Source: an uncultured Gammaproteobacteria bacterium
GTDB lineage: Bacteria; Patescibacteriota; Microgenomatia; UBA10105; UBA927
Direction: 5' to 3'
Assembly: GCA_964449675.1 (NCBI GenBank)
Contig: CAYVAR010000001.1
Coordinates: 44,877 to 108,876, forward strand
DNA length: 64,000 bases
Shown: piece by piece, positions 8,924 to 43,812 of the stretch
Position numbering within the stretch: position 1 is the first letter of the stretch
Layout: each line of letters opens with the position of its first letter
Notes under the pieces: generated by a model
Told to the model about the DNA's origin: nothing
Database searches by the model: none
The model's input: the letters and a program-made list of their open reading frames with translations, nothing else
Program-made: the position numbers and the translations under genes

Positions 8924-9032
8924 TACCTATTTAATAGTTATATACGAGCAAAATATTATAGGTCTTGAAAAATATAAACAAAAATGGTATATTATAATTG
9001 TTTAATAAATAGTTAAAAGACAACAACGCCTT

Positions 9033-9092
9033 GATCTTTCTTTAGAAGAAAGATAATTACAACCGGCCAGTCAAAAGGGGCCGGTTTTTTGA
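9033..9092 (+). terminator. Tandem hairpins ending in a T-run; an intrinsic terminator after rnj.
   Basis: ATCTTTCTT-tag-AAGAAAGAT is followed by CCGGCC-agtcaaaagg-GGCCGG and then TTTTTT. Confidence 0.55.
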
Positions 9093-9351
9093 TGCATAAA
9101 AAACCGGCACAAACAGAGCTGGTTTTGTTGACAACAGTAGCAAAGCCGGATGCACGCCAAGCTCCAGAAGCACTGAGAAGCCTGCGCGCATCCGGGCAAA
9201 GGTGCTTTGCTACAGTGCAGCATGTGTGCCCGCGCCCGGGTGCGGGCACATTAACAATCTGGTGTGAAAACAGGTTTTCCTGTTGCCCTTTCGGGAAAGA
9301 ACTTATTCTTTTTCGAATGGGTAACAGGAGACCTAAACAAGGAGACTATGA

Positions 9352-10066: not shown

Positions 10067-10080
10067 AAGGAAGGTATGAG

Positions 10081-11877
10081 ATGTTATTCACCTACAGTCT
10101 TGCATTCGCTGCGGGAGCGGCTGCTGCTGCAGGCCTGTTCGAGCTGTTCAACGGCCGCTTTAAACACCCGGTGAGCGCCGGATTCATCACGGGCGTCCTC
10201 ACCTTCATCGTCAACGCGGGGATCGTGTACTTCGGCATGCCGCCCTTCACCCACTGGCTCGCGGCCGGCTACCCGATTCTGTTCTTCGTGGATTTGGCTA
10301 TCGCTGCGGTCATCGTGGTCATTGACTCGGCGGTAACGTATGAAGAGCACCGCGCGGATGGTTCCGGCGGTTACGTAGCCGCAGGCACGTTCGTCGTGTT
10401 TCTGGTTGTTTGGGGTATGGTCGCCGCAGTGACCCCTCCCGGGGCATTCTGCGACAATCCCGGCTACCAGCGGATGGTCGCGCTCATAAACGTTGCTGAT
10501 AGCGACGCGGCGTTCCCGGACACCAACTTGGACAGTCTGGTGCGGGTTGCCCCGGAGACGGCTATGCTCAAGGCTAGCCGCGCAATCGGCGGCGACGCCA
10601 ACATCGGCTCCTACCTTGAAGTAAACAACCCTTACCTGCAAAAGGTCCAGGGGCGTTGGGTCTATGTTGTAGACCTTAAGGTAAAGGACTGGCGGGCCTT
10701 CGAAACTAAGGGTGCGGTCGTGCCCGGATATATCGTAGTTTCAGCAACGGATCCGCAAGCCGAGGCAGAATTTCGCACCGGCTATGCCATCCGCTATGCG
10801 CCAGACGCGCGCTGGGATCAGGACCTCGACCGGCACGCGTATCTAGGCTTCCTGTTGGGTTCTCCCTACCGCGTGATGGACTTGCGCGGTATGGAAGTTG
10901 ACGAGGAGTGGAACCCTCACTACACGGGCACACTCCTTCGTCATGAAGTAGGATTCGAAGGCAAGGTCGTGGTCGGGATGCTTGACGTCAATCCCCAATC
11001 CGGCGAGATGGCCATGTACACAGTCGGCGAGGTCCCCGAGTGGATCGACAGGATCTGGCCGCTCGAGCTTGTCAAAAGCTACGCAGGTTGGTGGGGTAGT
11101 TATATAGACCACCGGGCATGCGAGCTTCAAGGGGCTGCAGGTCAGCGCGCGATCGACAACACCAACGACGTCGTTACGAGCGCCGGACTCGAGTTTCAAG
11201 TCACGATGACGTCCGTCGGAACCGACCAGTCCCTAACGGAGATTCTCTACGTCGAGCCTCGGACGGGAATCGCCACTCGCTACAAGCTGACCGGCGCCAC
11301 AATCCAGGCTATCGACAACCTCGTTGATGAAGCCAGCCGGGAGATCACCGCCGAAGGTTACGAGCCAGTTGAATGCGAACTCCAGGTGCTTCTGGGCCGC
11401 CAGGTCTGGTACTGCGTCCTGACGGGCCGGGGCGGGGGCGAGGATCTCTCGAGCGGCTCCTACGCGGGGGTGGCCTTTGTCCAAGTGAAGTTTACCTCGG
11501 ATAACACCAAGGTAATCATCGCCGAAACGCTTGAAGAAGCCTACGCCCAGCTCCAGCGACAGATCGCCACGGAAAGTTCCGACGACCCGACCTTGCGCGA
11601 GGCTCAAGAAAAGATCCAAGTGGAAGGCGTGATCGAGCGCAAAGCCAGCATAGGCCAGGACGGTTTCGACACCACTGGTGGAGGTGCTTTCCTGTTCCTA
11701 ATTAAGGCTGACGACGGCAAGACCTACTACTGCCTGGCGCCGACCGCTAGCTGGAATGCGGCGCTCGCACGAGAAGGAGACCGGGTCACAATCACGGCCT
11801 TTCAGGAGCTTGACAAAAGCTACCTGACGGTGATTGATATCGCCATAGTCGGCGCGCCCGACTTCGATCCCAACTAA
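10081..11877 (+). CDS. Hypothetical polytopic membrane protein (about 4 N-terminal transmembrane segments plus a ~450-aa soluble domain) in the high-GC island.
   Basis: The start MLFTYSLAFAAGAAAAAGLF follows a GAAAGGAAGG RBS. GC-rich codons (GCC, CTG, CGC) run throughout. I recognise no domain. Confidence 0.55.
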   Translation: MLFTYSLAFAAGAAAAAGLFELFNGRFKHPVSAGFITGVLTFIVNAGIVYFGMPPFTHWLAAGYPILFFVDLAIAAVIVVIDSAVTYEEHRADGSGGYVAAGTFVVFLVVWGMVAAVTPPGAFCDNPGYQRMVALINVADSDAAFPDTNLDSLVRVAPETAMLKASRAIGGDANIGSYLEVNNPYLQKVQGRWVYVVDLKVKDWRAFETKGAVVPGYIVVSATDPQAEAEFRTGYAIRYAPDARWDQDLDRHAYLGFLLGSPYRVMDLRGMEVDEEWNPHYTGTLLRHEVGFEGKVVVGMLDVNPQSGEMAMYTVGEVPEWIDRIWPLELVKSYAGWWGSYIDHRACELQGAAGQRAIDNTNDVVTSAGLEFQVTMTSVGTDQSLTEILYVEPRTGIATRYKLTGATIQAIDNLVDEASREITAEGYEPVECELQVLLGRQVWYCVLTGRGGGEDLSSGSYAGVAFVQVKFTSDNTKVIIAETLEEAYAQLQRQIATESSDDPTLREAQEKIQVEGVIERKASIGQDGFDTTGGGAFLFLIKADDGKTYYCLAPTASWNAALAREGDRVTITAFQELDKSYLTVIDIAIVGAPDFDPN

Positions 11878-12240
11878 CGTATTCTCCTGTTACCCGAGGG
11901 TTGACTCTCGGTAGAACTATCACACCAGAGTGGAGGACGGACGATGATCCGATTGTCTGCGCGAATTTTGCGCATACGATTTGATCCATTTTCCGTTCCT
12001 CCATAGCCCTCTTCCGATGATTATCGGGACTGATGAGTCGGTCTTTCTACTATATAGGACTACGACGAAAGAGCTATTTTAAATAATGATTACCATAGAT
12101 TAAAGATATAAATAACGTCGACGACGTATATATTTGTCCGGGACTTGGCTAAACGTCATTTTCATACAATCCACCATTTTTCAGTTTAAACGGTTGAACC
12201 AACCTCCAAATCCCTCTATACTAACTGGTACACCATCTTT

Positions 12241-29850: not shown

Positions 29851-30354
29851 AAAAGACAACGAGTTTTTTCAACAACCAGATGTAACCTTAAGTTGCATTT
29901 GTCGCATCATGTTGCTATAATGTTCTTATTGTAAAATAAACTATGGCGCTAACACCTGATACTCGTCCTGGTTGTGGAAATTTTGATTCTCTTTCGGGAG
30001 TTTGTCTTGCAGGACGGCTGCATAGGGAAAAAAATATTCCCACAATGGCAATCATAGCGAAAATTTCTCCTCCTGGTGCGATCGAGGGACCTGATGTTCA
30101 AATCGACGGAATAATATGTAAAGTTAGAAACGGATCTCCAGATCAAATAGGATGCAGCGATTATGTGCCTAGAACTGAAGCAGATGACACTAGAGATCTA
30201 ATGCTTGATTAAAGGCATAAAATGTTTGATATTCTTCAAATAATTAAAGTCGTTGACAACGCATTCTTATTGGTTTAAGATTTCATCTTACTATAAGATT
30301 ATTGAGGTGTCATGCCTAGTATTTTTTACAGTTACGGCCTTTCCGTAAAAGGGG

Positions 30355-32856
30355 ATGCATATGCTAGATGAACTTAGAGGAGGTTACGGCCAAGACGAAA
30401 TTGAACAAAAATGGTCGGGCATCTGGGATCATTTACAATTATTTCAAAATACTCCTGATAATGAGCTTAGCCAACAATTAACTGGTGATAAACTTTATCT
30501 TCTTTTTGCATTTGCCTATCCATCCGGATCAGGGCTTCACGTAGGGCACGTAGAATCAAAAACCGCACTAGATATTCTTTCTAGATACTTCAGAATGCAG
30601 GGAAACAATGTATTCTTTCCCGTCGGATGGGATGCCTTCGGTCTACCTGCTGAGAATTATGCTGTAGAAACCGGGATTCACCCGGCAATTACCACTCAAA
30701 ACGCTATTGATACATTCCGAAGACAAGTACGACGCCTCGGGATTTCCTACGAGTGGGCAAATGAAATAGCAACAAGTGATCCAGAATATTACAAATGGAC
30801 GCAATGGATATTTACTCAATTATACGAGAACGGATTAGCCTATCATGCCGATGGACCTGTAAACTGGTGTCCATCCTGTCAAACAGTCTTAGCCAATGAG
30901 CAGGTTGAAGAAGGAGACTGTTTTCGTTGTCACAGTGAAGTAATTCAGAAGCAAATGAAGCAGTGGTTTTTAGGGATCACTCATTATAAGGATGAACTGA
31001 TTGACGGTCTTGCGACAGTGGATTGGCCAGAGTCTACCAAGAAAATGCAGAGGGATTGGATTGGCAGACAGGAGGGCGCGAACGTCATTTTCCATCTGCA
31101 GGATACGGATGCGGATCTGGCGTGTTTTACGACCAGATTAGACACCGTTTGCGGAGTGACGTTTGTTGTAGTTTCACCAGAAAAGTTTACGGAATATGGT
31201 TTAGCAAGTTATGTGCCGGATGATTTATGGGGTCCAGTAAGTGAGTATCTAGAAAGAGCCCAGCACAAGACAGAAGAACAACGTAAAAAAGGCGAAAGAG
31301 ATAAATACGGTATACACACAGGACTTACGATGTTAAATCCGGTGACAAACGAGGAAGTTCCTCTGTATCTTGCAGATTATGTACTTCCAAATTATGGTAC
31401 CGGTATCGTGATGGGCGTTCCCGCTCACGATGAAAGAGACTATGCGTTTGCAAAAAAATACGGTCTCCCGATACGTCAAGTTGTTCAGAATGATACGCAA
31501 AGTGAGCAGGGCGTTTTTTCCGAAGAAGGAATTCTCATCAATTCCGGTGAATTGAACGGTTTGACATCAGAACAAGCAAGAATTACTTTAATGCAGCAGT
31601 TTCCCGGCCTTATAGAATCTGCTGTAACATATAAACTTCGAGATTGGCTTATTTCTAGGCAAAGGTACTGGGGTGCTCCGATTCCGATCGTCTATGATCC
31701 GCAGGGTAAGCCGCATCCAGTAAGAAAAGAGCATCTTCCATGGTTATTGCCGACGGACGTAGATTTTAAACCCACTGGTGAGTCACCATTAAGATCATCC
31801 AGAGAATTTTTAGAAAGAACTGAAAGACTATATGGTGAAGGTTGGAGACCAGAGTACGACACGATGGATACTTTTGTCGATTCAAGCTGGTATTATCTCC
31901 GTTACCCAGATGCCCATAACCCGAATGAGTTTGCAGCAGCTCAACGGCTTCAGAAATGGCTTCCAGTCGATTTCTACATGATCGGTGCTGAGCATACTGT
32001 TCTTCATCTATTATATTCTCGTTTCTTCACTAAGTTTCTTCGAGATCAGGGATATCTAGCCTTTGATGAACCATTTCAAACGATGAGACATCAGGGGATG
32101 ATACTCGGGCCGGACGGGAAAAAGATGAGTAAATCGCTTGGTAACGTCATAAATCCAGATGACGTTATTGACCGATTCGGAGCAGATACGCTTCGCATGT
32201 ATGAAATGTTTATGGGTCCGATTGACGTTGATAAACCATGGGATGATCGTGCCGTCCATGGAGTATATAAATTTCTTTCACGGGTAGCGACATTAGTCAG
32301 ATCTTTTGAACAAGTACAAAAACCGCAACGAAGTCAAAATCTTGAAAAACTACTTCATCAAACTATCCGGAAAGTGACTGAAGATATAGAAAGGCTGAAA
32401 TTTAATACGGCAATAGCCGCTATGATGCGATTTGTAAATGAATGGTCCAGAGAGCAACGAGAAAATCCGACAGTAAATTCAGTGCTTACACCCGACGAAA
32501 TAGCTACTTTTGCAAAGATCCTTTCTCCATTTGCGCCATTTCTTGCGTCGGAAATATATTATCTTATTGAATCTAAAAATGGGGAAAATGGTCTTGAGCA
32601 AGATTATATTGTTCATTTACAACCATGGCCTATCTACGACGCAGCCCTTTCCACTGAACATGAATATCTCATCCCGGTGCAAATCAACGGCAAAGTGAGA
32701 GGACATATACCTATTTCAGGTGATATCATAAGGGATGAAACGAAGGTTTTCGCATTGGTCTATCAATTAGAGAGTATACAGGGAAGACTAGCGGGTAAGA
32801 ATATTAAAAGTCAAATATACGTTGAAGGAAGAATAGTCTCGATTGTAACCGATTAA
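30355..32856 (+). CDS. leuS: Leucyl-tRNA synthetase.
   Basis: Contains the HVGHVESKTALDILSRY (HIGH) motif, a KMSKS motif (KMSKSLGNV), and the CP1 editing and anticodon-binding regions. Confidence 0.95.
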   Translation: MHMLDELRGGYGQDEIEQKWSGIWDHLQLFQNTPDNELSQQLTGDKLYLLFAFAYPSGSGLHVGHVESKTALDILSRYFRMQGNNVFFPVGWDAFGLPAENYAVETGIHPAITTQNAIDTFRRQVRRLGISYEWANEIATSDPEYYKWTQWIFTQLYENGLAYHADGPVNWCPSCQTVLANEQVEEGDCFRCHSEVIQKQMKQWFLGITHYKDELIDGLATVDWPESTKKMQRDWIGRQEGANVIFHLQDTDADLACFTTRLDTVCGVTFVVVSPEKFTEYGLASYVPDDLWGPVSEYLERAQHKTEEQRKKGERDKYGIHTGLTMLNPVTNEEVPLYLADYVLPNYGTGIVMGVPAHDERDYAFAKKYGLPIRQVVQNDTQSEQGVFSEEGILINSGELNGLTSEQARITLMQQFPGLIESAVTYKLRDWLISRQRYWGAPIPIVYDPQGKPHPVRKEHLPWLLPTDVDFKPTGESPLRSSREFLERTERLYGEGWRPEYDTMDTFVDSSWYYLRYPDAHNPNEFAAAQRLQKWLPVDFYMIGAEHTVLHLLYSRFFTKFLRDQGYLAFDEPFQTMRHQGMILGPDGKKMSKSLGNVINPDDVIDRFGADTLRMYEMFMGPIDVDKPWDDRAVHGVYKFLSRVATLVRSFEQVQKPQRSQNLEKLLHQTIRKVTEDIERLKFNTAIAAMMRFVNEWSREQRENPTVNSVLTPDEIATFAKILSPFAPFLASEIYYLIESKNGENGLEQDYIVHLQPWPIYDAALSTEHEYLIPVQINGKVRGHIPISGDIIRDETKVFALVYQLESIQGRLAGKNIKSQIYVEGRIVSIVTD

Positions 32857-32874
32857 CCACGAGTCACAATTACT

Positions 32875-33309
32875 ATGAAGGTTGTATTAGAAAGGGTTTC
32901 GATGGCAGCAGTTACAGTAAGTAAAGAGACTGTTGGCCGTATAGAATCTGGGTTTTTGCTTCTTGTTGGATTTACCCATAGTGACACTGAGGAAATTACA
33001 GGTGAAATGGCAAGAAAAATAGCAAATTTTCGTGTCATGGAAGATGAAAATGGTAAATTGAACAGCACGTTACTGGAGACAGGTGGTAAAATACTTGCTG
33101 TTCCGCAATTTACGTTATATGCCGATACATCAGGTAGGAGGCCTGGATTTTTGGACGCAGCTCGTCCTGAACAAGCTCATACCCTATTTGATACTTTTGT
33201 GACTCAGTTAACTTCTGAGGGCATATCTGTAGAAACTGGTACGTTCGGCGCGTTTATGAGTGTGCAATCAATAAATGAGGGACCTTTAACGCTTGTTGTT
33301 GAAATCTAA
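32875..33309 (+). CDS. dtd: D-aminoacyl-tRNA deacylase.
   Basis: The sequence aligns end to end with Dtd: MKVVLERVS ... FLLLVGF ... QFTLYADT ... GRRPGF ... ETGTFGA ... NEGPLTL. Confidence 0.9.
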   Translation: MKVVLERVSMAAVTVSKETVGRIESGFLLLVGFTHSDTEEITGEMARKIANFRVMEDENGKLNSTLLETGGKILAVPQFTLYADTSGRRPGFLDAARPEQAHTLFDTFVTQLTSEGISVETGTFGAFMSVQSINEGPLTLVVEI

Positions 33310-33318
33310 GGAGTATCC

Positions 33319-34632
33319 TCAATTTTTTCCCAACCCGAGACATTGAGTTTTGTATATACGATACGTTGATTTGGGAAACGCATTGCTCTCCCATTCTTTG
33401 AATACTTCGGTGAAGATATTTATGGCGCGCAGTATTTCTCTATGCGTTATCGTTAGAGGAGGGTGTATGCGTAATACGTCATTATTTTTTCCAAAATATC
33501 CGACGTAGAGTCCCTTCTCAAGACACCTGACACCAAAGAGGGCCGCAAGAGGCTTATCATCTTTTGAGCGTATTGATAAGCCGATTTGGAATCCAATTCC
33601 CCGAACCTCACAACGTAGAGAGTCTCCAGACCTCCTTATCAGATTGTTTAATTGATGAATGAAAAATATTCCATTTTTGTTAACAGAATTCAAAATATTC
33701 TCTTTTTCGATAATGGATAGAATTTTTGTCCCAACTGCACAGGCAGGAGGATGTCCAGAATACGTGAAAACATGCTGTGCTTTGTCAAGCGAGTCAATTA
33801 CTTCTGATCGACCTATACAAGCTCCTAAAGCAATATAACCTCCGCTTATACCCTTGCCTACGACGATAATATCCGGTATGACATCAAAATGCTCTATGCC
33901 CCACCATTTTCCGGTTCGGCCAACTCCACTTTGCGCTTCATCATCTATCAGGATTACCCCATACTTTTGAGTTAATCTTTTCAGTTCGGCAAAAAAATAC
34001 TTGGGCGGAACAAGATTTCCTCCGTCTCCTTGAATAGGCTCAATGATAAAGCATGCAATCTTACCGGTTTGAAAATATTCTTCTGCGGCTTTTAAACACG
34101 CGTCGGCCCCTTTTTTTGTAATCGGAAAGTCTAAAAAGAAAAACTCATCAGAACTCAAAATTCCATTCCTTATACCTGGAAACCCAGTAGCTTGTGCAGA
34201 TAGTCCCGTACTTCCGTGGTATGCATTATGAAAAGCAATAGTTCCTCTTCTTTGTGTAAATTTTCTTGCTGCTTTAATAGCACCGTCTATACTGTCGGAT
34301 GCAGACATGCCAAACATTACTTTCTTTCTGAAGTTTCCCGGAGTTATTCTGATTAATTTTTCGGCTAGTTCTATAGTTTCTATATTAGGAGAATAGACAA
34401 AACATGACTGTGTAATTTTTTTTGCAACAGTTGCATATGCATCGATTACGTCTGTCCGTCCATAACCAACATTTACTGAGGAAGCGGCTGAAAATAAATC
34501 AAGATATTCTTTCCCTTCAACGTCTTTGATGGTACTTCCGCGAGCGGATTCCAGAGCAATTCCATATAATCCAGCATACTGAGCTCTGGCTATATATTTT
34601 TTAACTTTCCTAAATACCTGTGTAGTTTTCAT
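33319..34632 (-). CDS. Class-III (omega) PLP-dependent aminotransferase.
   Basis: Contains DEAQSGVGRTGKWWG followed by the catalytic Lys in VVGKGISGGY, with the fold-type I class III pattern. Confidence 0.85.
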   Translation of the reverse strand: MKTTQVFRKVKKYIARAQYAGLYGIALESARGSTIKDVEGKEYLDLFSAASSVNVGYGRTDVIDAYATVAKKITQSCFVYSPNIETIELAEKLIRITPGNFRKKVMFGMSASDSIDGAIKAARKFTQRRGTIAFHNAYHGSTGLSAQATGFPGIRNGILSSDEFFFLDFPITKKGADACLKAAEEYFQTGKIACFIIEPIQGDGGNLVPPKYFFAELKRLTQKYGVILIDDEAQSGVGRTGKWWGIEHFDVIPDIIVVGKGISGGYIALGACIGRSEVIDSLDKAQHVFTYSGHPPACAVGTKILSIIEKENILNSVNKNGIFFIHQLNNLIRRSGDSLRCEVRGIGFQIGLSIRSKDDKPLAALFGVRCLEKGLYVGYFGKNNDVLRIHPPLTITHREILRAINIFTEVFKEWESNAFPKSTYRIYKTQCLGLGKN

Positions 34633-34640
34633 ACATTACC

Positions 34641-34666
34641 AAAAAAATTCCCCCTTCTCGGGGGGC
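34641..34666 (-). terminator. Intrinsic terminator on the minus strand, between the 468-aa gene and the aminotransferase gene.
   Basis: The minus-strand transcript reads GCCCCCC-gagaa-GGGGG followed by TTTTTTT. Confidence 0.5.
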
Positions 34667-34780
34667 TTATGTGCTATCACACAAAATGCTCCCCGCTAAG
34701 AGGAAAGGAGAACGAGAAGGAGCGTATTTATAGAATAATTCATATCTTGAATATCAGTATATCAGACTATATGTTTGAGG

Positions 34781-36187
34781 TCAACTATTAATAAAACTTA
34801 GAAATTTCATAAGGAGGTCTTCACTACCGATATCACCGATCATCACAAGAATATCCCGTTCAATTTCGTTCAATCGTTTGAGTTCAAGCGATCGTTCGGC
34901 TCCTGACAACTGTGAGTTAATTAAATCCCTCATATAATTCAGATAAGACAATGGCGAATCGGAATAGGTCCGTATTCCTAAATCATACCGTGTCCGATAG
35001 TACACGGGTGTACTCCCGACTCTTGTAATTGCCAGTGTACTGGCAACAGGAGACAATGCATGATCCGGTGAGGCGGAGAAAATTTCATAACTTATTGACG
35101 CAGCAGTTGCTTCCGATTCGCTGGTGCAGAGTAATGTCTGACTCGTCTCTTTAGAAGTCGATGCAGGATGAAATCTTCCGTTTCTTCTGATGTATGCACG
35201 TGCGATATTAAACATTCGTTCGGGTCTACCACCTATTGATACGGCAAAAATGCTTTTTTCTCCATCTTCAAAGACATTGACTTTGGGATGATAAACTGAA
35301 TCTTTGAATAATAATGGATGCATCGCGGCATAAACATGGGAGAGTTTCGCACCGTTATCGTTACCGTGCTTGATTCCTCTAGCATATAGTATAGCAAGCG
35401 CTCTTTTCACGTCATCATCTTGAGAATCCAAAAGTAATTGTGAATAGTTTTGAATAACTTCACGCGTGATAGGGTCATGCATACCCCACGGATTTTCAAA
35501 TTCAAAATATACATACGGAAAAATTTTATTATGAAAATAGTAAATATACTTGTATATATATTCATACGTTCTCGTCATATGTTGTAGCACCTCTTCTGAG
35601 GACATTTCTGCGGCATTTACCGAAATTGCTGTATAAGGAGCGAAAAAAATTCTAAGCCTCGGGAGTTCAAAGTCGATAATATTCTTTCGTTTTAGTTCTC
35701 TTAAATTTTCTAATATTTTTATACCTGGTATGACATACGATGGTGCTCGAATATTTGTATCCTCATCATTACTTCCCCCAAATCCAGTACTAATTGTCAG
35801 TTCTTCAAATAGCCTAGGATCGCGAGCTAAAAGAATCGAGGTAGATAGCAGATTTAAATAGGAATCTTGATGGATAGATCGAATCTGGGTACCCAGCAAG
35901 AAACACTCCAATATGGGTCGAACTGCTGCACGGGCCCTTTTGCCTTCGTCGCTGTCAGGGTTGACTCCCGTTAGGGTCAGCGAAAATATCTCTGCAATTT
36001 GAGCTTTGAGTGTGGGTGATACACGATTTACCTGTAATTCACCATTACCTGTATCTAATAAAATTGCTGTTTGTAAAATGAGGTCTGTACTCTGATTGAG
36101 AACTCTACGAAACCCTTGATCAAGAGTAATATTGTAATCTTCGCAATGCAAAGGAATGCTAGTATCGTAATACTTTTCGGGGGTCAT
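34781..36187 (-). CDS. Hypothetical protein of 468 aa, probably an enzyme of unknown family.
   Basis: Long ORF with no transmembrane segment, signal peptide or motif I can assign. Confidence 0.45.
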   Translation of the reverse strand: MTPEKYYDTSIPLHCEDYNITLDQGFRRVLNQSTDLILQTAILLDTGNGELQVNRVSPTLKAQIAEIFSLTLTGVNPDSDEGKRARAAVRPILECFLLGTQIRSIHQDSYLNLLSTSILLARDPRLFEELTISTGFGGSNDEDTNIRAPSYVIPGIKILENLRELKRKNIIDFELPRLRIFFAPYTAISVNAAEMSSEEVLQHMTRTYEYIYKYIYYFHNKIFPYVYFEFENPWGMHDPITREVIQNYSQLLLDSQDDDVKRALAILYARGIKHGNDNGAKLSHVYAAMHPLLFKDSVYHPKVNVFEDGEKSIFAVSIGGRPERMFNIARAYIRRNGRFHPASTSKETSQTLLCTSESEATAASISYEIFSASPDHALSPVASTLAITRVGSTPVYYRTRYDLGIRTYSDSPLSYLNYMRDLINSQLSGAERSLELKRLNEIERDILVMIGDIGSEDLLMKFLSFINS

Positions 36188-36458
36188 AATTAATTTTATG
36201 CTTTAGTCTATTATATAATGTATCAATCTGGTATAATTATTACGACGGCCAATTACAACCTATAATTATACCCAAATTATACAATTTTCAAGGAATAATA
36301 TAGGTGACAATAAAGAATTCTGGCCAATATACATAATTAAACAAGTATATCAGGGTTTTATTATAAGTCAATGTAAACTTATTTAATCATTAACCTATAA
36401 TTTATTTTGTAATATATAAGTCTTAGCATCAGATTTTTTTAAGGGGAGAGAACTTAAT

Positions 36459-36749
36459 ATGTCCAAGATAATAGCAGAGTATCCTGCGCGAACTTCATTG
36501 CAGGATGTATTTGATTCAAATAAGATAATCGAACTAATGAGAATGGATCCTGGTGATTGCAGAGTATTTTACACTTTGTATAAAGGAATGCTACTTGAGA
36601 TGAACGCACTCCGGCCGAATAATGTCGCTATGGCAGATGCTACAGATACAGCCAATGGACTTTGGGATATACACCGACCTGATTGTTTTCTTGGATCTAT
36701 ATCAGCGCACTTTCCAAGTGGAGTAATGGAACACAGGTTATCTGAATAG
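36459..36749 (+). CDS. Hypothetical protein of 96 aa.
   Basis: Listed ORF with an RBS-like GGGGAGAG upstream. No motif. Confidence 0.35.
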   Translation: MSKIIAEYPARTSLQDVFDSNKIIELMRMDPGDCRVFYTLYKGMLLEMNALRPNNVAMADATDTANGLWDIHRPDCFLGSISAHFPSGVMEHRLSE

Positions 36750-36750
36750 A

Positions 36751-37029
36751 TTGATCCTTAAGAAAATCAATACAAGCAGAACCTATCCTTCCTTCTCGTC
36801 AACGACAGCCAACCAATTCGCCATTCGAGCAACGGGCGGCGTAAAGTTCGTGTTGGCCGTGGACGGTAAAGGCAACGCCTCGCGATGGTGCGAGGCTACG
36901 ACCACAGGAGACTTTCGCTGTACCACTGGTGGTCTGACTGTTTCCCTCACTCAGCTCTTTGCGGAAAATGCCGCCCTCAAGCAGCAACTGAAACAACTTG
37001 AGGAGCGGATCGCAAAATTGGAACAGTAA
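36751..37029 (+). CDS. Fragment resembling the C-terminal chaperone-of-endosialidase (tail-fibre) domain; probably a gene remnant.
   Basis: NQFAIRATGGVKF ... resembles the N.F.VRA.GG.RF start of the tail-fibre intramolecular-chaperone domain, and the sequence ends in a coiled coil. Local GC is clearly higher than the flanks. Confidence 0.3.
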   Translation: MILKKINTSRTYPSFSSTTANQFAIRATGGVKFVLAVDGKGNASRWCEATTTGDFRCTTGGLTVSLTQLFAENAALKQQLKQLEERIAKLEQ

Positions 37030-37233
37030 ACGTTTTTAAGAAGGCCCACCGATGAGACGAGAACGTGCAGTACATGCAACTGCTCATATGTGCGTTCTCC
37101 TCTCCAAGTTTTCATTACATTATAATAATAGGTAAATGTAGGTACATGACCCTAAATAAAATTGAGGAAGACAATGCGGTAGTGAGCGGAGTGAAATTGA
37201 CATCGTACACTTTTCGTTCGTACAATCAATACA

Positions 37234-38511
37234 ATGCCTGACTTCAAGCTGGTAGAATCCCAACAGTACAACACAAAAATTACCAAAGACTTCTCTATTG
37301 ATATTGAGATTGCGCGAGATGGGTTGTATGTCATTGTTATCGGTGCTCGTGCGTTGGCATGGTGGCAGAATATACCTCACTTCTTTAAGCGATATTTTCA
37401 GGACGACCATCTCTCCGTCCGACTTAATACTTTGGGTGATGAGCTTGCATGGAACGGAAACGACCTCAAGGGGCTTGAACAAACAAACATTTTTCTTTCA
37501 CACATTCATCCGGGGAGTTATAGAATTTCTTTCAAAGTCAAACAGCAGCCAACGTTGTTGTCTTTAGTGATTTACGAAGTGGTAAATACCACAAACCCCA
37601 ATCTCATCGAGGTGATTCCTTCTTCAGTCGAAGACGGAAATAGACGTCCGGTTATCAAAGTAGTCGCCGCAGATGTTTTGATACAGAACATAACTATTGA
37701 CGCTACCGTGTTGACCGGAAGACAACATATGGTATTTTTTCGAGATGATGATGATTTGAAAGCAGTAATAAATGGGGAAGTTGTCAAAAACGATCTGCCG
37801 AAGTCGCATACGGACTGGTACTGGTGCGGCCAAGGCCAACGCTATCAACAGATCAATCGCAGGACACTTGAAAAGAAATTATCAGGAGAGACAAAAAATA
37901 CCATGGAACTCTATGCCGATAGAACGCCTGCCATTCATAGATTCGAGCTTATACTTTCAGTTAACACCCTGCCCCCTCGTTTTGATGAGTTATACATTAT
38001 CGATGATGATACGTTCACCCATGGAGGGTTTACCCAAAAAGAAATCCAAGATTTTTTTGAACAAAAAAGTCAAAACCACCCCAACCATCTGGCCTTCCGC
38101 ATATTTCATGAAAAAAGCGCAGCGCAGCTCATCTACCAGGCAGCAAAAACAAACAGCATCAACCCAAAGGTCATGGTGACGAAACTTCAGGCAGAGCAAG
38201 GGGTGATCTCGGGGAGTAGGGCAACAAACCCCACACAGTCACAGCTTGATCGCGCCATGGGCGTTGGCATATTGGACGACGGCACCGTGTTAGGATCATA
38301 CCAGGGGTTTGAGAATCAGGTTGCCGGCGCCGCCCAATTACTACGGAAGCATTTTGATCAAGCAGAGAAAGAGCACTTTACCCTACGAGATGTTGACGGC
38401 AGAATGCTCTTGGTGAAAAATAGCGCGACGTACAGCCTCTATCGATATACGCCTCATGTTGCCGGGGCCAAGCTCTTTTTTGATATTTACTCAAGTTTTT
38501 TCAGACTATGA
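37234..38511 (+). CDS. Hypothetical protein of 425 aa, possibly a cell-wall hydrolase-like C-terminal domain.
   Basis: The C-terminal region INPKVMVTKLQAEQGVISG ... SQLDRAMGVGILDDG resembles glucosaminidase/muramidase-type domains, with low confidence. There is no signal peptide. Confidence 0.4.
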   Translation: MPDFKLVESQQYNTKITKDFSIDIEIARDGLYVIVIGARALAWWQNIPHFFKRYFQDDHLSVRLNTLGDELAWNGNDLKGLEQTNIFLSHIHPGSYRISFKVKQQPTLLSLVIYEVVNTTNPNLIEVIPSSVEDGNRRPVIKVVAADVLIQNITIDATVLTGRQHMVFFRDDDDLKAVINGEVVKNDLPKSHTDWYWCGQGQRYQQINRRTLEKKLSGETKNTMELYADRTPAIHRFELILSVNTLPPRFDELYIIDDDTFTHGGFTQKEIQDFFEQKSQNHPNHLAFRIFHEKSAAQLIYQAAKTNSINPKVMVTKLQAEQGVISGSRATNPTQSQLDRAMGVGILDDGTVLGSYQGFENQVAGAAQLLRKHFDQAEKEHFTLRDVDGRMLLVKNSATYSLYRYTPHVAGAKLFFDIYSSFFRL

Positions 38512-38903
38512 ACCGACGTTTCGTACGCACCTTCGAACTCGTTGGACTCGCAATAGGAATAGTTCTCTTTTTGCTTATCGTAAGAACAAATAGCGAACTG
38601 TTTAAAGACATACAATCGTACCAACGACTCCTTAAAGATGCTCAGGAGCGGGCAGACCGTATGACCGAAGAAAAAACTCGTTGGGAGAATACGTATGCAC
38701 GCACACGGGAATCTTGGATTGCATGGCAAATAGAATCAAAACTGAAAGATATAATAACGGGTGTAGAATCGATTGAATTGGGAAATAATGATGATGGGAT
38801 TGCCTACGTACAAGAGGGAGGGGTCAAAAAGCGGTACTCATTCCGATTCGCTTCTGATCGCAATAACACGGCGTTAGTTACCGATGTACAACTGTTGCCA
38901 TAG
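38508..38903 (+). CDS. Hypothetical membrane-anchored protein of 131 aa.
   Basis: An N-terminal transmembrane segment is present, and the start overlaps the stop of the upstream gene (ATGA). Confidence 0.4.
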   Translation: MNRRFVRTFELVGLAIGIVLFLLIVRTNSELFKDIQSYQRLLKDAQERADRMTEEKTRWENTYARTRESWIAWQIESKLKDIITGVESIELGNNDDGIAYVQEGGVKKRYSFRFASDRNNTALVTDVQLLP

Positions 38904-38996
38904 GGATACATAACACAAATCGAGAGATTTTGTTGGGTAGTTCTCGACTCGAGTTTACCCCGATCTTTTCGAGTGTTTCAAGCAATGTGGTAGGCG

Positions 38997-39401
38997 CTAC
39001 AGAGTTTTAAACCCCATCTGTTCAAAGTTACGGTCGAAAGTGAAAACCGTCTTGATTTTCAACTCTTTCATTACTACATAACTGGTACAGTCGGTAAAAG
39101 ACCATTTTTTATCTCTGTTATATCGTCTAAGTACTTCTTGGGCTTTAACAAATCTCTGTTCCGTAATCCTTTCAATGCTCCACTTGCCTAAGGTTAAATT
39201 CCGGTCAAACTCCATAGCCAGCCGGTAACCCTCTTTTGACAAAAGGGCGGTGTACGTTTCGTCAATAACGTAATCAGTAAGAATAGTCCTTATTTTTTGG
39301 GCCTCAATTTTTAACAAAACCTCTCTTGCCTGCTGATGGTCTTTGTCTCCCTGCCGAAGTAACGCCACGAAGGCACCAGTATCAATAAATATATTTGTCA
39401 T
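38997..39401 (-). CDS. vapC: PIN-domain toxin VapC.
   Basis: The sequence MTNIFIDTGAFVALL ... IDETYTAL ... FTDCTS carries the PIN acidic residues. Confidence 0.8.
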   Translation of the reverse strand: MTNIFIDTGAFVALLRQGDKDHQQAREVLLKIEAQKIRTILTDYVIDETYTALLSKEGYRLAMEFDRNLTLGKWSIERITEQRFVKAQEVLRRYNRDKKWSFTDCTSYVVMKELKIKTVFTFDRNFEQMGFKTL

Positions 39402-39642
39402 GATTTCTGGCCAAATCTACTGGACCAGTAGTCTTATATTTTTTAGCCGCCTTTACCATCCTAAACATGGCCCTGATGGCGCTTATTTTTTTAACTGTCT
39501 TAGCGACTCTCTTCCTGTCCTGTATCTTCTCAAACAGAAACTCCCGTACCAAACCCGAGATGGATCTGCCTTCTTCTCTAGCCAAAACAGCCAACTCTAA
39601 CCGAGTTTTGTCATCAATCATGAGCTGTACTCGTTGTAACAT
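39382..39642 (-). CDS. vapB: RHH/CopG-like antitoxin VapB.
   Basis: MLQRVQLMIDDKTRLELAVLAREEGRSISGLVREFL has an RHH fold pattern. The gene lies upstream of the PIN gene and overlaps it. Confidence 0.55.
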   Translation of the reverse strand: MLQRVQLMIDDKTRLELAVLAREEGRSISGLVREFLFEKIQDRKRVAKTVKKISAIRAMFRMVKAAKKYKTTGPVDLARNHDKYIY

Positions 39643-39745
39643 ATACACAATACTATTACACAACTAATCAGGTGTCAATCCGACGTTTGGGGATTTTGTC
39701 AATTCCAATTAACTCCTTAGTTTTGTACGATATACTTATAGGTAC

Positions 39746-40288
39746 ATGACCCCACATTTTCGTTTTCCATTTACCGGAAATTTTGCGATCACTTTTCCGT
39801 TTGGGGCTGCACCTATAACTAGTGATATGCAGAAAAAATTTGATGCGTGGGGGATCAAAGGCCATGACGGCGTTGATTTTGGTTTACCAGAAGGGACTGA
39901 GGTGGTAGCGGTTGACGCTGGTACCGTTTCTCAATACGGAGAAAATGGCGACTTCGGCATATCAGTAACTATCAAGCATGAATGGGGAATCAGTCTCTAC
40001 GCGCATTTGCACGATACAGCGATAACACTTCATCAAAATATAAAAGAAGGAGAGGTTATTGGCCACAGCGGACAAACGGGAGTTACAACCGGACCACATC
40101 TGCATTTTGGTATAAAACCAAATGATGAAGTTTTGGAGAATGGATATCTGGGATTTGTTGATCCTACACCAGGTTTTGTGAAAGCGCGCCAGTTCAAGGT
40201 AATCAAACGGCAACAGACGCTTGAACGCGAAGGAAAAATTCGTCAAAAAGGCATCCGCGGCAGATCGGTGTACACCCCAGTTCAGTAG
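39746..40288 (+). CDS. M23-family metallopeptidase.
   Basis: Contains the two M23 zinc-site motifs, GHDGVDFG ... EGTEVVAVDAGTV and HLHFGI. Confidence 0.8.
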   Translation: MTPHFRFPFTGNFAITFPFGAAPITSDMQKKFDAWGIKGHDGVDFGLPEGTEVVAVDAGTVSQYGENGDFGISVTIKHEWGISLYAHLHDTAITLHQNIKEGEVIGHSGQTGVTTGPHLHFGIKPNDEVLENGYLGFVDPTPGFVKARQFKVIKRQQTLEREGKIRQKGIRGRSVYTPVQ

Positions 40289-40363
40289 CCAATACTCAGA
40301 GTTTTAGTAAGTCACGTGTGTTGACAGAGACGTAGGAGCGTGTCATTCTAGATAGAGAAATAT

Positions 40364-42934
40364 ATGACAAAACCGCAACCACCAAAAGGAGTAACACCCA
40401 GTAGAGCTGAAGGTGAACCATCAGGTCAACCTTTTGTTTCTCAAGCTGATCAACCACTTACCCCCCCCAATGCCGCCGCACGTATCCCGGAGGATTCTCC
40501 TCAAGCGAAAGACGCGCGAGATGCGCTGGATACTTTAGCTACACGAGCCACACCAAGCGATATACCAGATGACCTTGCAGATTTTTTTACTGATTCTCCT
40601 GGAACAGCTTTAGACACTGAACAAATTTTAAAAGATGTCCAAGAAGCAAGACGGGATCCATATGAAAGACGTAGAGAAATAAATCAAGCAGTTGCCGATC
40701 CCGAGCATGCCATAACAAAAAAAGCTAGAGCTCTTGGCGCATCGCTATGGGCGCACCCGGGGGATGAAGCAGTCGTCAGCGAAGCGGTTGCGTTTTTAGG
40801 TGAAAACATGAGAGTTGCTCTTCAAGAGCCTGGACAATTGGGCGTGGGCGATATGATCGGCTTGCTAAAAACGGAATTAGGTGAACTTGAAAGCGGGCAG
40901 AGAAGTATTTATAGAAAATTGTCTGATTTTGAGGCGACTGCAGAAGTTGGAGCAGAACGAAGGACTGGCCAGCAAACGGTTACGGCAACTAAAGCGACGC
41001 TCCTGTCTATCTCCGAAGCAGCATTTCAATCAGAAGATTTGACTGCTAATAATTTGCATCTTGCAATTTCCGCATTTGAGGCAGCGCAGGTCGATATGAT
41101 ATCTGCTGAACCGGTATGGGCGGTTGATACGATGGCACGCGCAATTGAAAAAGCAGATATAAACAATCCGGCAATAAGACATGAGCTTGTCGGGATGAAA
41201 ACTAAAAATATCCTCCAAACAACCATGGACATGGATGCTCGTGCAAAAGATGAACAGCCCGAGGCGCTTACGGCGCGAGAAATAATACTTAAAAGATCAC
41301 TCGAAGCACAACACATAAATGACCAAATCAAAGAAGCTGCACGACTAGAGGCAGAAAGGGTAGCAAATGCAGAGAAGCTCGCGCGCGCGCTGGAAAGGAA
41401 AATGGCAGCAGCAGTGTCTGACGGAATGACGCAATTTTCCTATCACTTTACCGGAGGAGATGATTATCCTGTTCGATTTACCACCAGTAGCGACGGATCC
41501 GGTATCCTACGAGGTGTTTTAGAAGATGACTATCAGATGTTTGGTGAGGTTAGTCAAAATCATAGTCTTGGAGGAGTGAATGGATATCTTCAGGTATTGG
41601 AAAATATTCTTGAAACACCCGGGTTTGAGGATCGTCTTGTGGAAAAAACAGTTGGAAAGTATTGGAGTGATCCGGCCGGTAAAAGCCGTGAGGATTACAA
41701 GCGCGAAGGGAGAGAAAACGAATGGAACATGTATATGCAGCAACAGGTCCGTATCGAAGTCTATGGAAATGCTCTTGGTATACTTTTTGGAGCGGTAAAT
41801 GAAGAAGGTCCTCATATGAGTGAGGATAGACGGGCACTGATATTGCGACGGTCTCTGGAGGTACTTGGCGGCGGGAGGTCATTGGAACAACTTATTTCAG
41901 GTAGAGGTGAGCTGTCACCGGAGATGAAAATGGTCCGGAAAACACTTACAGAATATATCAAAAATCCTTTTGGCCGAGAGGAAAAAAAGAGAGACGACAG
42001 CGAATCTGTGGCAGCCAGACGAAAAGGGAGACTCAGGACGCTCAAAGATTATGCAGCGCAGGCAGATACTTCAGTGAGTGACAGGCGCAGGCGGAAACAG
42101 GAAGAACTTAGACAAAAACAAAAAGAAAAAGAGGAGCGGCGAGATCGACTGACGGCAAAGAGAACGAAGTCTCAAGAAGCACTTCGGGCTATAGAAAAAG
42201 TGAGAGTTGATATGCGTGCGTTAAAAGAAAAAGCCGCAAGACTAGGACAACTATCATACGCTCCGGTAGAAGAATTTATCACGGTTACTCCAAATGATAA
42301 CGCAGCAGGAGATCCGCTTGTTGATGTAGCTATAAACGAAGATAGATTTAGGATGCGGGAACAAGAAATTGCGCAATTGCGAGAGCAGCTAACTGCGGAG
42401 CATGTTGAAAGTCCGGACGAAATGCGTGCGACGCTCGCACGGCTTGAAACCGATCAGGAATTTGTTCAAGCGATGAGGCCTTCTGTGCAACGAGTAAATG
42501 GTCCAGCGTACCAAGGTACAAAAGAACAAAGAGGAGGGTTTTTGGGAGTTGGCAAGAAGAGACTTGGTGCTATTGCCGCAACTGCATTTGATGAAATTAA
42601 ACCATTAAGCAAACAAGAAGAATTACCCACTTATTTTTCACGAGAGATTGATGATTCTCAACGCAGTATATTTCTTGCACCAGAAAGAGCAAAAACACTT
42701 GATGATCTACGCGGGGCTTTAGAAATACAGTTAGCAGCAGATGACGTTACGGTCATAGCAGGAGACATTGAAACTGTCGAAGCAGAACTTTCCGGGAGAA
42801 GAGCTAGAGGAGCGACGCGATTTGAAAAACACCGAAATGACTTATCAAATGCGGTTAAGGGTGCCGCTCGAGTATACGTGAAAGACCAACTCTACCAGGC
42901 TTTATATCAACAGCATCGGATTTCATCGACATAA
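40364..42934 (+). CDS. Large acidic, coiled-coil-rich hypothetical protein of 856 aa.
   Basis: Long ORF with GC above its surroundings, no transmembrane segment or signal peptide, and no motif I recognise. Confidence 0.5.
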   Translation: MTKPQPPKGVTPSRAEGEPSGQPFVSQADQPLTPPNAAARIPEDSPQAKDARDALDTLATRATPSDIPDDLADFFTDSPGTALDTEQILKDVQEARRDPYERRREINQAVADPEHAITKKARALGASLWAHPGDEAVVSEAVAFLGENMRVALQEPGQLGVGDMIGLLKTELGELESGQRSIYRKLSDFEATAEVGAERRTGQQTVTATKATLLSISEAAFQSEDLTANNLHLAISAFEAAQVDMISAEPVWAVDTMARAIEKADINNPAIRHELVGMKTKNILQTTMDMDARAKDEQPEALTAREIILKRSLEAQHINDQIKEAARLEAERVANAEKLARALERKMAAAVSDGMTQFSYHFTGGDDYPVRFTTSSDGSGILRGVLEDDYQMFGEVSQNHSLGGVNGYLQVLENILETPGFEDRLVEKTVGKYWSDPAGKSREDYKREGRENEWNMYMQQQVRIEVYGNALGILFGAVNEEGPHMSEDRRALILRRSLEVLGGGRSLEQLISGRGELSPEMKMVRKTLTEYIKNPFGREEKKRDDSESVAARRKGRLRTLKDYAAQADTSVSDRRRRKQEELRQKQKEKEERRDRLTAKRTKSQEALRAIEKVRVDMRALKEKAARLGQLSYAPVEEFITVTPNDNAAGDPLVDVAINEDRFRMREQEIAQLREQLTAEHVESPDEMRATLARLETDQEFVQAMRPSVQRVNGPAYQGTKEQRGGFLGVGKKRLGAIAATAFDEIKPLSKQEELPTYFSREIDDSQRSIFLAPERAKTLDDLRGALEIQLAADDVTVIAGDIETVEAELSGRRARGATRFEKHRNDLSNAVKGAARVYVKDQLYQALYQQHRISST

Positions 42935-43087
42935 ATAATTAGGACTAGCCAATACGCACTGTCCTGGCTAGCCCTGTGGATGTTTTTTTATTGGAGTGTA
43001 TGCGAGTAGTTTGCTTCACGAGCAGGCGGGCCTCCAGATTTTTTTACCCTCCTTCGCAGAAAGCCACGGGCGTTATCCCGTGGAGCT

Positions 43088-43670
43088 TCACTTTTTCAAA
43101 CGTTTGGTGTTTTGCGACTCTTTGAGGTAATTGCCAGATGTGGAGACTTTTTGACCGGATTTTCGTTCTAATTCCTTTCGCGCGTTACCAGCAACACTAC
43201 CACCCTCACGGGCAGCTTGTATATTTTGGGGAAACCCTTGGGCGTTTTTGGCGCGGGTAATTTTCGTGGTTGATGCTTCACTAAGCATGGTGAAGATAAG
43301 TTCAAGGTCGTCCATATGATCTCGAAGATTTTGTCTTTTAAGGTGTTTGAATTTTTTGTATTCCGATGGTGTCATGTCAAACGTTGCTTTGGAGATTTCT
43401 GCGGTGAGAATAGCGTATTCTCTATTTTTTCTCACGTTTCGTTTTTTCCATCGGAGCTTCCAATTTCAACCGTCCGATTTTTTCGGACACTTCAGTATAC
43501 CCCTCGCGTGTTAGCCTGACTTTGAGGTCATTCCAGTACTTTCTTGGCCGATCTGATTGAGTAAGGACTGCGATAACATCGATAACCGAAAACCACCATT
43601 CGTCCTGGTGAATGGTTCGGCGGATTTGTTTACCTTGGAAGAGAGCCAACTGTGTATGTACAGTTTGCAT
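43088..43670 (-). pseudogene. DinD / Bro-N-like (DNA-damage-inducible protein D family) gene split into two overlapping ORFs; probably frameshifted.
   Basis: ORF 43422..43670 carries the N-terminal HQDEWWFSVIDVIAVL ... YWNDLKVRL Bro-N/DinD-like region. ORF 43088..43435 carries the DinD-like C-terminal region. The two overlap by 14 nt in different frames. Confidence 0.45.
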
Positions 43671-43728
43671 ATTGTTGTAATGGTAGTATATTAAAAAAAG
43701 AAATTAAAGACTATTCTCACGGAGGGCT

Positions 43729-43757
43729 TGACAAGTTTCTTTAGGGAGCTATAATAC
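43729..43757 (+). promoter_or_regulatory. Consensus sigma70 promoter upstream of rpoB.
   Basis: TTGACA-N16-TATAAT (cTTGACAagtttctttagggagcTATAAT). Confidence 0.5.
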
Positions 43758-43782
43758 ATACTAATTGAATAGCCATAAGGCA

Positions 43783-43812
43783 GGCGAACGTTCATTGTTC
43801 GCTTCTTTTTGT
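43783..43812 (+). terminator. Attenuator-like hairpin in the rpoB leader.
   Basis: GCGAAC-gttcatt-GTTCGC followed by TTCTTTTT, lying between the promoter and the rpoB start. Confidence 0.4.

Follow-up and report, generated by a model that had tools for sequence, protein, structure and literature searches.

A gene-turnover interval upstream of rpoB in a Gottesmanbacteria genome and its candidate cell-wall hydrolase cassette

Introduction

When two putative cell-wall hydrolases, a toxin-antitoxin pair and a broken gene of a phage-carried family stand side by side in a small genome of the candidate phyla radiation (CPR), the question arises whether they arrived as one element or were gathered piece by piece. 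We address this question for the region at 36.4-43.7 kb of a 64-kb window, the whole stretch of DNA analysed here (contig CAYVAR010000001.1, positions 44,877 to 108,876 of the forward strand; coordinates below count from the first letter of the window, with + and - for the strands). The window belongs to a Gottesmanbacteria (CPR) genome, in which the N-terminal half of rpoB is 76-83% identical to that of metagenome-assembled genomes of Candidatus Gottesmanbacteria and Microgenomates. A preliminary description, made from the sequence alone, had suggested a decayed prophage or an island specialised for envelope attack or remodelling. The analysis reported here favors a different answer: the region is probably a mosaic, located in a hotspot of gene turnover, whose accessory modules are distributed independently, and neither a single element nor a prophage. 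All open reading frames (ORFs) named in that description are present at the coordinates given there, and profile searches (Pfam, PHROGs, NCBIfam, PADLOC) have assigned a family to some of them, namely a PIN-domain toxin, an M23 peptidase and a DinD-like gene, while the ORFs of 96, 92, 425, 131, 856 and 468 amino acids (aa) have been left without a family match.

A variable interval between YceG/MltG and rpoB

The region is preceded by alaS, a sortase gene, a gene for pyrimidine-nucleoside phosphorylase (PyNP), YceG/MltG, leuS, dtd and a class-III aminotransferase gene, and it is followed by rpoB, rpoC and rpsL. In the six relatives that have the upstream block (loci fetched for comparison carry L numbers), the order alaS, a gene for a 788-aa protein, sortase, PyNP and YceG, and then rpoB, rpoC, rpsL and rpsG, has been kept. 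In these relatives YceG and rpoB are separated by ∼0.5 kb (L004) at the least and 6.4 kb (L002) at the most, and each has contents of its own there: L006 and L027 carry PD-(D/E)XK-like and DUF2130-like genes, L036 a channel protein, and L002 RlmN- and MazG-like genes together with a YceG paralogue (all but the channel protein and the paralogue identified by reading the sequences). In the window, the corresponding interval (29851..43727, not assigned to a strand; delimited by the synteny of relatives and by the alignment upstream of rpoB) comes to 14 kb in total and holds leuS, dtd, the aminotransferase gene, a 468-aa gene and the region under study. Proteins of the region have not been found within 10 kb upstream of rpoB in any of the 30 relatives checked, and in the alignment of the DNA upstream of rpoB conservation starts exactly at the -35 hexamer, at 43728.

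The preliminary description was thus right to treat the region as non-core, since the interval between YceG and rpoB differs in every related genome and no core gene order has been conserved. The region is accordingly variable, and variability alone does not make a prophage. Because the essential genes leuS and dtd lie inside the interval, rearrangement acts at this locus besides insertion. As in a genomic island, close relatives lack the region at this locus but have conserved flanks; lateral transfer, a further mark of islands, has been detected for the cassette of the 425-aa and 131-aa genes only. The region is an example of how small CPR genomes keep a gene-turnover hotspot directly upstream of the conserved rpoB promoter.

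In the mechanism that we propose, the stretch of 36.4-43.7 kb would form the distal part of an interval bounded by the YceG end (29.85 kb) and the rpoB -35 hexamer (43.73 kb), where unrelated accessory modules would have gathered and decayed independently of each other. The first of these would be a 1.7-kb cassette moving laterally among Microgenomates, in which the gene of a leaderless candidate glycosidase and that of a small type-II membrane protein appear to be coupled in translation; the 425-aa enzyme would cut the glycan strands of the cell wall, and the 131-aa partner, with a domain of ∼100 residues directed outward, would control, anchor or neutralise it. A vapBC toxin-antitoxin pair would be the second module, a leaderless M23 endopeptidase together with the rare helical protein of 856 aa encoded after it the third, a dead DinD/Bro-N-type gene with a phage-borne nearest intact relative the fourth, and ∼1 kb of unannotated DNA with two unsupported ORFs the fifth. 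Independence of the modules is indicated by the finding that the 425-aa and the 856-aa families recur singly among chromosomal neighbours in CPR genomes.

A laterally exchanged two-gene cassette

The first module (37206..38903, +; 1.7 kb, as given by the extent of DNA similarity to relatives) consists of the gene for the 425-aa leaderless peptidoglycan glycosidase candidate (37234..38511, +) and the gene for a 131-aa bitopic membrane protein (38508..38903, +), the start of which overlaps the stop of the former (ATGA). Besides the window, seven fetched loci, which represent three distinct genomic neighbourhoods, contain a pair of a 425-aa and a 130- or 131-aa gene with an overlap of 1 or 4 nucleotides (nt). 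The first of these is made up of EamA, hydrolase, prephenate dehydratase and hisS genes, the second of an epimerase gene and a CopG-family gene, and the third has a Y1 transposase gene on one side (L088, L089) and the genes for RNase J and an AAA protein on the other. The vapBC pair, the M23 gene and the 856-aa gene are absent from the three other neighbourhoods of the pair.

Compared with L088, L089 and L090, the DNA at 37206-38903 is 84.7% identical over 1698 nt, and similarity covers exactly this span, whereas the RNase J and AAA genes on the same relative contig are 69.8-71.6% identical to their orthologues in the window; this arrangement of cassette and housekeeping genes is reproduced in three assemblies. 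An identity of 84.7% in the cassette against 70-72% in the housekeeping genes argues for a recent lateral transfer. The synonymous sites, counted after Nei-Gojobori with a script of our own, point in the same direction. The proportion of synonymous differences (pS) amounts to 0.36 in the 425-aa gene (synonymous divergence dS 0.49; ratio of nonsynonymous to synonymous divergence, dN/dS, 0.215; amino-acid identity 79%) and to 0.32 in the 131-aa gene (dS 0.41, dN/dS 0.232, amino-acid identity 82%), as against 0.86 in RNase J (amino-acid identity 78%) and 0.80 in the AAA gene (82%), both of which are saturated in dS so that dN/dS is not computable. From pS values of 0.32-0.36 versus 0.80-0.86 it follows that the ancestor of the cassette is much more recent than that of the genomes that carry it. 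The GC content at third codon positions (GC3) reaches 0.48 in the cassette and its 425-aa gene, compared with 0.29-0.42 in neighbouring genes. The sequences thus indicate that the cassette has been laterally exchanged in recent time.

These values bear on the simplest alternative, according to which the hydrolases would be ordinary, vertically inherited cell-wall genes, i.e., housekeeping autolysins of growth and division that have been shuffled to a place beside rpoB as leuS and dtd have been. The presence of leuS and dtd in the interval, with rearrangement as well as insertion at work, the further envelope genes nearby (sortase and YceG/MltG) and the dN/dS of ∼0.22 of the cassette, which speaks for purifying selection, would all fit such an origin. 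However, the cassette has diverged at synonymous sites less than half as much as the housekeeping genes beside it on one contig, the distribution is patchy, with ∼30 homologues of the 425-aa protein and 29 representatives of the 856-aa family in billions of proteins, and neither hydrolase has a signal peptide. Vertical descent is, in our judgement, rather unlikely.

The 425-aa protein is composed of two β-sandwich domains that resemble carbohydrate-binding modules (CBM) and of a divergent C-terminal domain of the GH73/GH23 fold, so that the catalytic domain shows the lysozyme-like fold. A muramidase- or glucosaminidase-like C-terminus had been noticed in the preliminary description, and a lysozyme-like domain has been confirmed there. 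No match to the protein has been obtained among the sequence models of Pfam (PF01832 and PF01464 included), NCBIfam or the PDB profiles. About 30 homologues have been collected (E ≤ 0.001), and the few of them that bear a source name all come from Gottesmanbacteria or Roizmanbacteria. Located at a helix end, the glutamate E321 (motif LQAEQG) does not vary among 26 homologues, and it is probably the catalytic acid of the candidate glycosidase. The enzyme and its homologues carry no signal peptide, the enzyme has no hydrophobic N-terminus, and only 11 codons are open upstream of the start of the 425-aa gene. A promoter-like site (37197..37226, +; 11/12 consensus positions) is found just upstream of the gene and lies partly inside the block conserved with L088, which begins at 37206. 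The 131-aa protein, which confirms the small membrane protein reported earlier for the region, has a single N-terminal hydrophobic transmembrane (TM) helix (Kyte-Doolittle maximum 2.26, residues 9-27), followed by a C-terminal domain of ∼100 aa that is conserved. The fold of the 425-aa protein has been assigned; its enzymatic activity and the role of its partner we infer.

Among characterised enzymes, the closest to the 425-aa protein are the GH73 autolysins (LytB of S. pneumoniae, AtlE of S. aureus) and the GH23 lytic transglycosylases and g-type lysozyme, and the candidate chemistry is that of either the GH73 or the GH23 type. In contrast to these enzymes, the protein is recognised by no sequence model (Pfam, NCBIfam, PDB profile), and it lacks a signal peptide, LysM, SH3 and choline-binding repeats, in place of which it has the two CBM-like β-sandwiches. 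The analysis has defined a 1.7-kb cassette in which a lysozyme-fold enzyme unseen by sequence models is combined with a conserved membrane partner; the cassette appears confined to Microgenomates, and its lateral exchange from genome to genome is measurable.

The N-terminal β-sandwich module has also been observed in three paralogues within 12 kb of a CPR contig (L085:1657-12022). The C-termini of these paralogues consist of an SLT domain, a Hydrolase_2 (SleB-like) domain, and the same unnamed domain as in the window protein, respectively, and HEPN/MNT toxin-antitoxin genes are interspersed among them.

Phage-related features

A phage origin of at least one component is suggested by the DinD/Bro-N-type gene (43088..43670, -), which had been described as disrupted and is indeed so. 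Of the 286 positions of the PADLOC model PDC-S13, its two fragments cover 4-78 and 165-274, and phrog_15286 is matched as well; the profile is thus covered at its ends only and in two frames, not at full length in one. In comparison with intact homologues, residues ∼67-152 are missing and the frame is changed, and the loss of ∼86 central residues together with the frameshift marks the gene as a pseudogene. With the DinD/Bro-N family, whose members are phage anti-repressor-like, the window copy shares the ends of the model, and it differs from that family as a frameshifted pseudogene with an internal deletion of ∼86 codons. An intact 280-aa homologue has been annotated as Bro-N. The closest intact copy (65-71%) is located on an IMG/VR phage contig (L098), next to ORFs that have been read as terminase, portal and head-morphogenesis genes, as against an identity of no more than 47-57% for a chromosomal CPR copy. 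The remnant was probably left by one phage- or mobile-derived insertion.

A decayed prophage would require considerably more, namely that the entire region derives from one integrated phage that has lost its integrase, structural and packaging genes, and of which lysis genes (the glycosidase with a holin-like protein, and the M23 peptidase as a lysin), a toxin-antitoxin moron, a virion- or tape-measure-like 856-aa protein and the Bro-N/DinD gene have been left. Several features agree with such an origin, i.e., the nearness of the pseudogene to a viral-contig copy that has terminase and portal genes as neighbours, the matches of the M23 domain to phage endolysin and tape-measure PHROGs, the lack of leaders on the hydrolases, the coupling of the 425-aa gene to a single-TM protein in the manner of a lysis cassette, and the absence of the region from relatives. 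Nevertheless, no integrase or recombinase domain has been detected in any ORF of 34.8-43.7 kb (Pfam, PHROG, NCBIfam), neither att sites nor virion, structural, packaging or tail genes have been found in the region, and the 64-kb window contains no tRNA gene. The PHROG matches are confined to the M23 protein, a weak match of the PIN protein to a family of unknown function, and the DinD-like fragments, and those of M23 are owed to a domain that is ubiquitous; for the 856-aa protein, no PHROG match falls below E 0.03. Relatives of the 425-aa and 856-aa families are missing from GenBank phages and from IMG/VR, collections in which CPR phages are poorly sampled, and in other CPR genomes the two families stand singly among housekeeping genes. 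Furthermore, the composition of the region is ordinary, and a supposed tail-fibre fragment has found no support. The prophage of the preliminary description has therefore been abandoned here as quite unlikely; of the phage hallmarks that were cited for it, two peptidoglycan hydrolases, the toxin-antitoxin pair and the pseudogene of a phage-carried family have held, and the tail-fibre fragment has not.

The cassette itself invites comparison with the endolysin-holin cassettes of phages, with which it shares the coupling of a leaderless candidate muralytic enzyme to a small membrane protein and the property of being mobile. In contrast to such cassettes, no viral relatives of it have been found, the gene of the enzyme comes first, the family is situated among chromosomal housekeeping genes, and the 131-aa partner differs from most holins in that it combines one TM helix with a conserved external domain of ∼100 aa. 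A defence island has likewise been considered and set aside: PADLOC finds only the DinD-like pseudogene, with PDC-S13 being a candidate system, besides a match to LmuB that is discounted below.

The toxin-antitoxin, peptidase and helical-protein modules

The vapBC pair proposed in the preliminary description has been verified for its toxin, a VapC-type PIN protein (38997..39401, -; PF01850, E 1.4e-16, 61.6 bits vs a cutoff of 23.6), whereas the putative RHH/RelB-like antitoxin upstream of it (93 aa; 39382..39663, -), although fitting in geometry with an overlap of 20 nt with vapC, has given weak matches below the curated cutoffs (E 4e-4 to 0.05; NCBIfam RelB-like 4e-4, RHH_5 0.008). The order of an overlapping small antitoxin gene before a PIN toxin gene is that of VapBC type II systems, from which the locus differs in the weak match of its antitoxin to RHH and RelB models.

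The M23 metallopeptidase (39746..40288, +; 180 aa) has likewise been confirmed by its profile match (PF01551, E 3e-24, 85.5 bits vs a cutoff of 28.7) and by its Zn-binding motifs, H40xxxD44 and H118xH120, so that the active site is intact in the sequence; PHROG and NCBIfam M23 families are matched as well. It agrees with LytM/lysostaphin-type endopeptidases in the PF01551 domain and in the HxxxD and HxH motifs, and differs from them in being minimal, having no signal peptide, targeting domain, or coiled-coil or LysM region.

It is followed by the gene for the 856-aa protein (40364..42934, +), a predicted cytoplasmic, all-helical protein with a disordered N-terminus that belongs to a rare uncharacterised CPR family. 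The preliminary description had listed it as an acidic coiled-coil orphan; the protein is indeed mildly acidic (isoelectric point 5.4) and all-helical in its AlphaFold2 model (mean predicted local distance difference test score, pLDDT, 71), although it is not a strict orphan, as four homologues at 37-39% identity are known and a full scan of 1.84 billion representatives with a hidden Markov model has returned 29 matches, mostly of ∼800 aa. A Foldseek search with the model has produced no fold match (best E 0.09), no Pfam domain occurs among 27 members of the family, and the PDB profile search has come back empty. The PADLOC match to LmuB (E 2.6e-4) falls in a long helical region and has been taken as coiled-coil noise. 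The genomic contexts of the family are chromosomal, as exemplified by transketolase and aminotransferase genes in L095. With ∼29 representatives in 1.8 billion proteins and no fold match, the family remains dark matter. A gene for a ClpB-type AAA+ chaperone has been observed adjacent to, or less than 2 kb from, members of the family on two unrelated contigs (L093:5538-10442, L096:2567-9286), a sample too small to judge a functional link.

Several observations weigh against a mosaic of fully independent modules. In a second genome (L086), an M23 homologue of 57% identity is located 2.4 kb from an 856-aa homologue, so that not all modules are independent. The DinD-like pseudogene is nearer to the phage copy than to the CPR copy, and may hence stem from a phage- or mobile-derived insertion at this place, and both hydrolases are without signal peptides, like phage lysins. 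The missing viral relatives are weak negative evidence, since CPR phages are few or absent in the collections and the scans of IMG/VR and of metagenomes rely on short conserved patterns. As to the transfer of the cassette, the sequences compared are contigs from metagenomes, and dS was calculated with our own Nei-Gojobori script. Finally, a direct repeat, TAGGTACATGACCC, occurs at 37139..37157 (+) and again at 39739-39757, where it covers the start codon of the M23 gene (14 nt exact, 17/19 overall; 2600-nt spacing). The two copies bracket the hydrolase cassette and vapBC, which could thus have arrived together. This pair of repeats was noticed post hoc and is marginally above chance (∼0.2 matches expected per window; 1/100 shuffles reached this level). 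It has been found in none of the other loci, the similarity goes no further than the repeat itself, and it may represent an insertion junction or a coincidence.

Action on other cells or on the producer's own wall

The enrichment of cell-wall enzymes that had been noted for the region is real, with a lysozyme-fold candidate glycosidase and an active-looking M23 peptidase within 3 kb, and the missing export signals on both hydrolases are the most curious feature of the region. An island for envelope attack has been put forward to account for it. The 425-aa protein would be an effector of an episymbiont, secreted or delivered by contact, that breaches the wall of a host or competitor, and the 131-aa protein would serve as its cognate immunity or regulatory protein, with the M23 and 856-aa proteins as a second attack module. 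We regard this proposal as unlikely.

The cell-wall effector-immunity pairs of interbacterial antagonism include Tge/Tgi of the type VI secretion system and the Esx pair TelC-TipC, and the succession of an enzyme and a small TM partner, in this order and topology, is typical of such pairs. The cassette resembles them in that a small gene follows that of the enzyme, the domain of the partner lies outside, the distribution is patchy with lateral transfer, and the paralogues are modular. In particular, a leaderless hydrolase is followed by an overlapping small gene for one TM helix with an external domain, dN/dS is raised, and in the paralogues of L085 the constant N-terminal module of the 425-aa protein is joined to alternative lytic domains, SLT and Hydrolase_2. 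It differs from the known pairs in having neither a marker domain (LXG, PAAR, MIX etc.) nor secretion genes nearby. The paralogues of L085 have no small partner, a CBM combined with a lysozyme domain is also usual in self-acting autolysins, and no host is known for Gottesmanbacteria.

A precedent within the same phylum is provided by Ca. Southlakia epibionticum, for which a published survey reports that lysozyme and peptidase homologues beside virB4 are essential for epibiotic growth (PMC12102498). The likeness lies in a patescibacterium with glycosidase and peptidase genes close together; in contrast to that arrangement, the 64-kb window of the present genome contains no secretion-system gene (virB4, other type IV or type VII genes), and an association with a type IV secretion system has accordingly been rejected. 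The precedent of a lysozyme and a peptidase linked to virB4 makes the idea of an effector-immunity pair worth testing. In its most novel form, this idea holds that the two genes circulate laterally among ultrasmall Microgenomates as an effector-immunity pair: a leaderless, CBM-targeted enzyme of lysozyme fold would be delivered by a non-Sec route and open a host's or rival's wall, and the 131-aa protein would protect the producer, while the M23 and 856-aa proteins could act as a second module; we consider this unlikely. If it were true, the pair would be a genetic handle on how CPR bacteria other than Saccharibacteria engage other cells. Any link of the region to host interaction we infer. If the targets of the cassette are other cells, it would be a candidate episymbiosis tool of a lineage without a cultured member. 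Provided that it acts on the wall of its producer, it would be one more divergent autolysin family.

Unannotated DNA, composition and boundaries

The left end of the region adjoins a 468-aa gene (34781-36187, -) for which no Pfam, PHROG, NCBIfam or PADLOC match and no relative in the metagenome scan has been found, so that its earlier label of an unknown enzyme is without support either way. In the adjoining 36188-37233, the NCBI annotation of contig JACQJW010000017.1 (GCA_016204865.1, 189 kb), which includes the window, places no gene. The 96-aa orphan ORF (36459..36749, +), whose coding status is unproven, is absent from the NCBI calls and present in those of a Logan assembly of the same organism; it matches nothing in Pfam, PHROG, NCBIfam or PADLOC and shows no similarity to any fetched locus. 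The 92-aa ORF that follows in a GC-rich patch (36751..37029, +; GC 51.6%, GC3 58%) had been read as the C-terminal fragment of a tail-fibre chaperone of endosialidase, for which none of the searches has yielded support. Peptidase_S74 was rejected, with no Pfam match at E ≤ 0.1 and just a bZIP-like coil similarity; Pfam and PHROGs offer nothing beyond weak coiled-coil matches, and the sole match of a tblastn search of phages is a 25-residue coil at E 0.4. No homologue is present among 5.8 billion proteins, a database from which the ORF itself is missing, and no relative has appeared in the metagenome scan. The stretch is probably non-coding or a degraded remnant.

Folding of the GC-rich patch as RNA (36740-37040) has given modest z values of -2.2 (+) and -2.9 (-; 0/100 shuffles), and a GC-rich hairpin is located inside it at 36877-36896. 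A structured RNA, for which there is no Rfam match and only the modest folding z, is unlikely to matter here. A remnant of the Y1 transposase that stands beside the cassette in L088 and L089 was sought by tblastx of 36188-37233 against all loci, which returned nothing. In the intergenic stretch from which the 468-aa gene and the 96-aa ORF diverge, an AT-rich inverted repeat (36219-36283; 22-nt arms, 82% complementary, 21-nt loop) has been observed, which may be an operator or a terminator.

The compositional patchiness that had been attributed to the region has not been recovered. Tetranucleotide z values across 36-44 kb range from -0.7 to +0.7, and the sole outlier of the window is found at 9-12 kb. 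The deviant composition expected of an island is thus missing, and raised GC3 is seen only in the 425-aa gene and the 92-aa ORF (0.58). Att-like repeats, which were to be looked for at 36.2 and 43.7 kb according to the preliminary description, do not exceed expectation either, as the longest common word is A/T-rich, measures 12 nt and remains inside the range of shuffled sequences, and a comparison of 29.9 with 43.7 kb has likewise yielded nothing above chance.

The rpoB leader and the DNA at 9-12 kb

The variable DNA ends on the right at the rpoB promoter and a leader hairpin with a U-run (43728..43804, +; 12/12 consensus positions). The promoter consists of TTGACA, 16 nt and TATAAT (a spacer of 17 nt in most relatives) and is followed by TTGAATAGCC and then by the hairpin GGCGAACGTTCATTGTTCGC with the U-run. 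This promoter-leader block (43728-43810 in the window; L001-L006, L027 and L036) has been kept in 9/9 Gottesmanbacteria species, and the surrounding DNA is unalignable. It looks like an rpoB leader or attenuator. No Rfam family matches it, or any other part of the window, and the nearly invariant hairpin varies too little for a test of covariation.

Within the window, composition is truly anomalous only far from the region, at 9000-12000, with a GC content of 57-59% against ∼42%, GC3 of 0.64-0.70 and tetranucleotide z of 4-5. This stretch holds two ORFs (9089-10066, +, and 9961-11877, +), neither of which matches Pfam. The distant relatives (23-28%) of its 638-aa multi-TM protein are hypothetical or DUF3981 proteins on plasmids of Bacillus, Vibrio and others. 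In L088, a 304-aa gene and the 425+131 cassette are located downstream of RNase J in place of this DNA. Compared with the region under study, the stretch at 9-12 kb is the better candidate for foreign DNA of recent acquisition.

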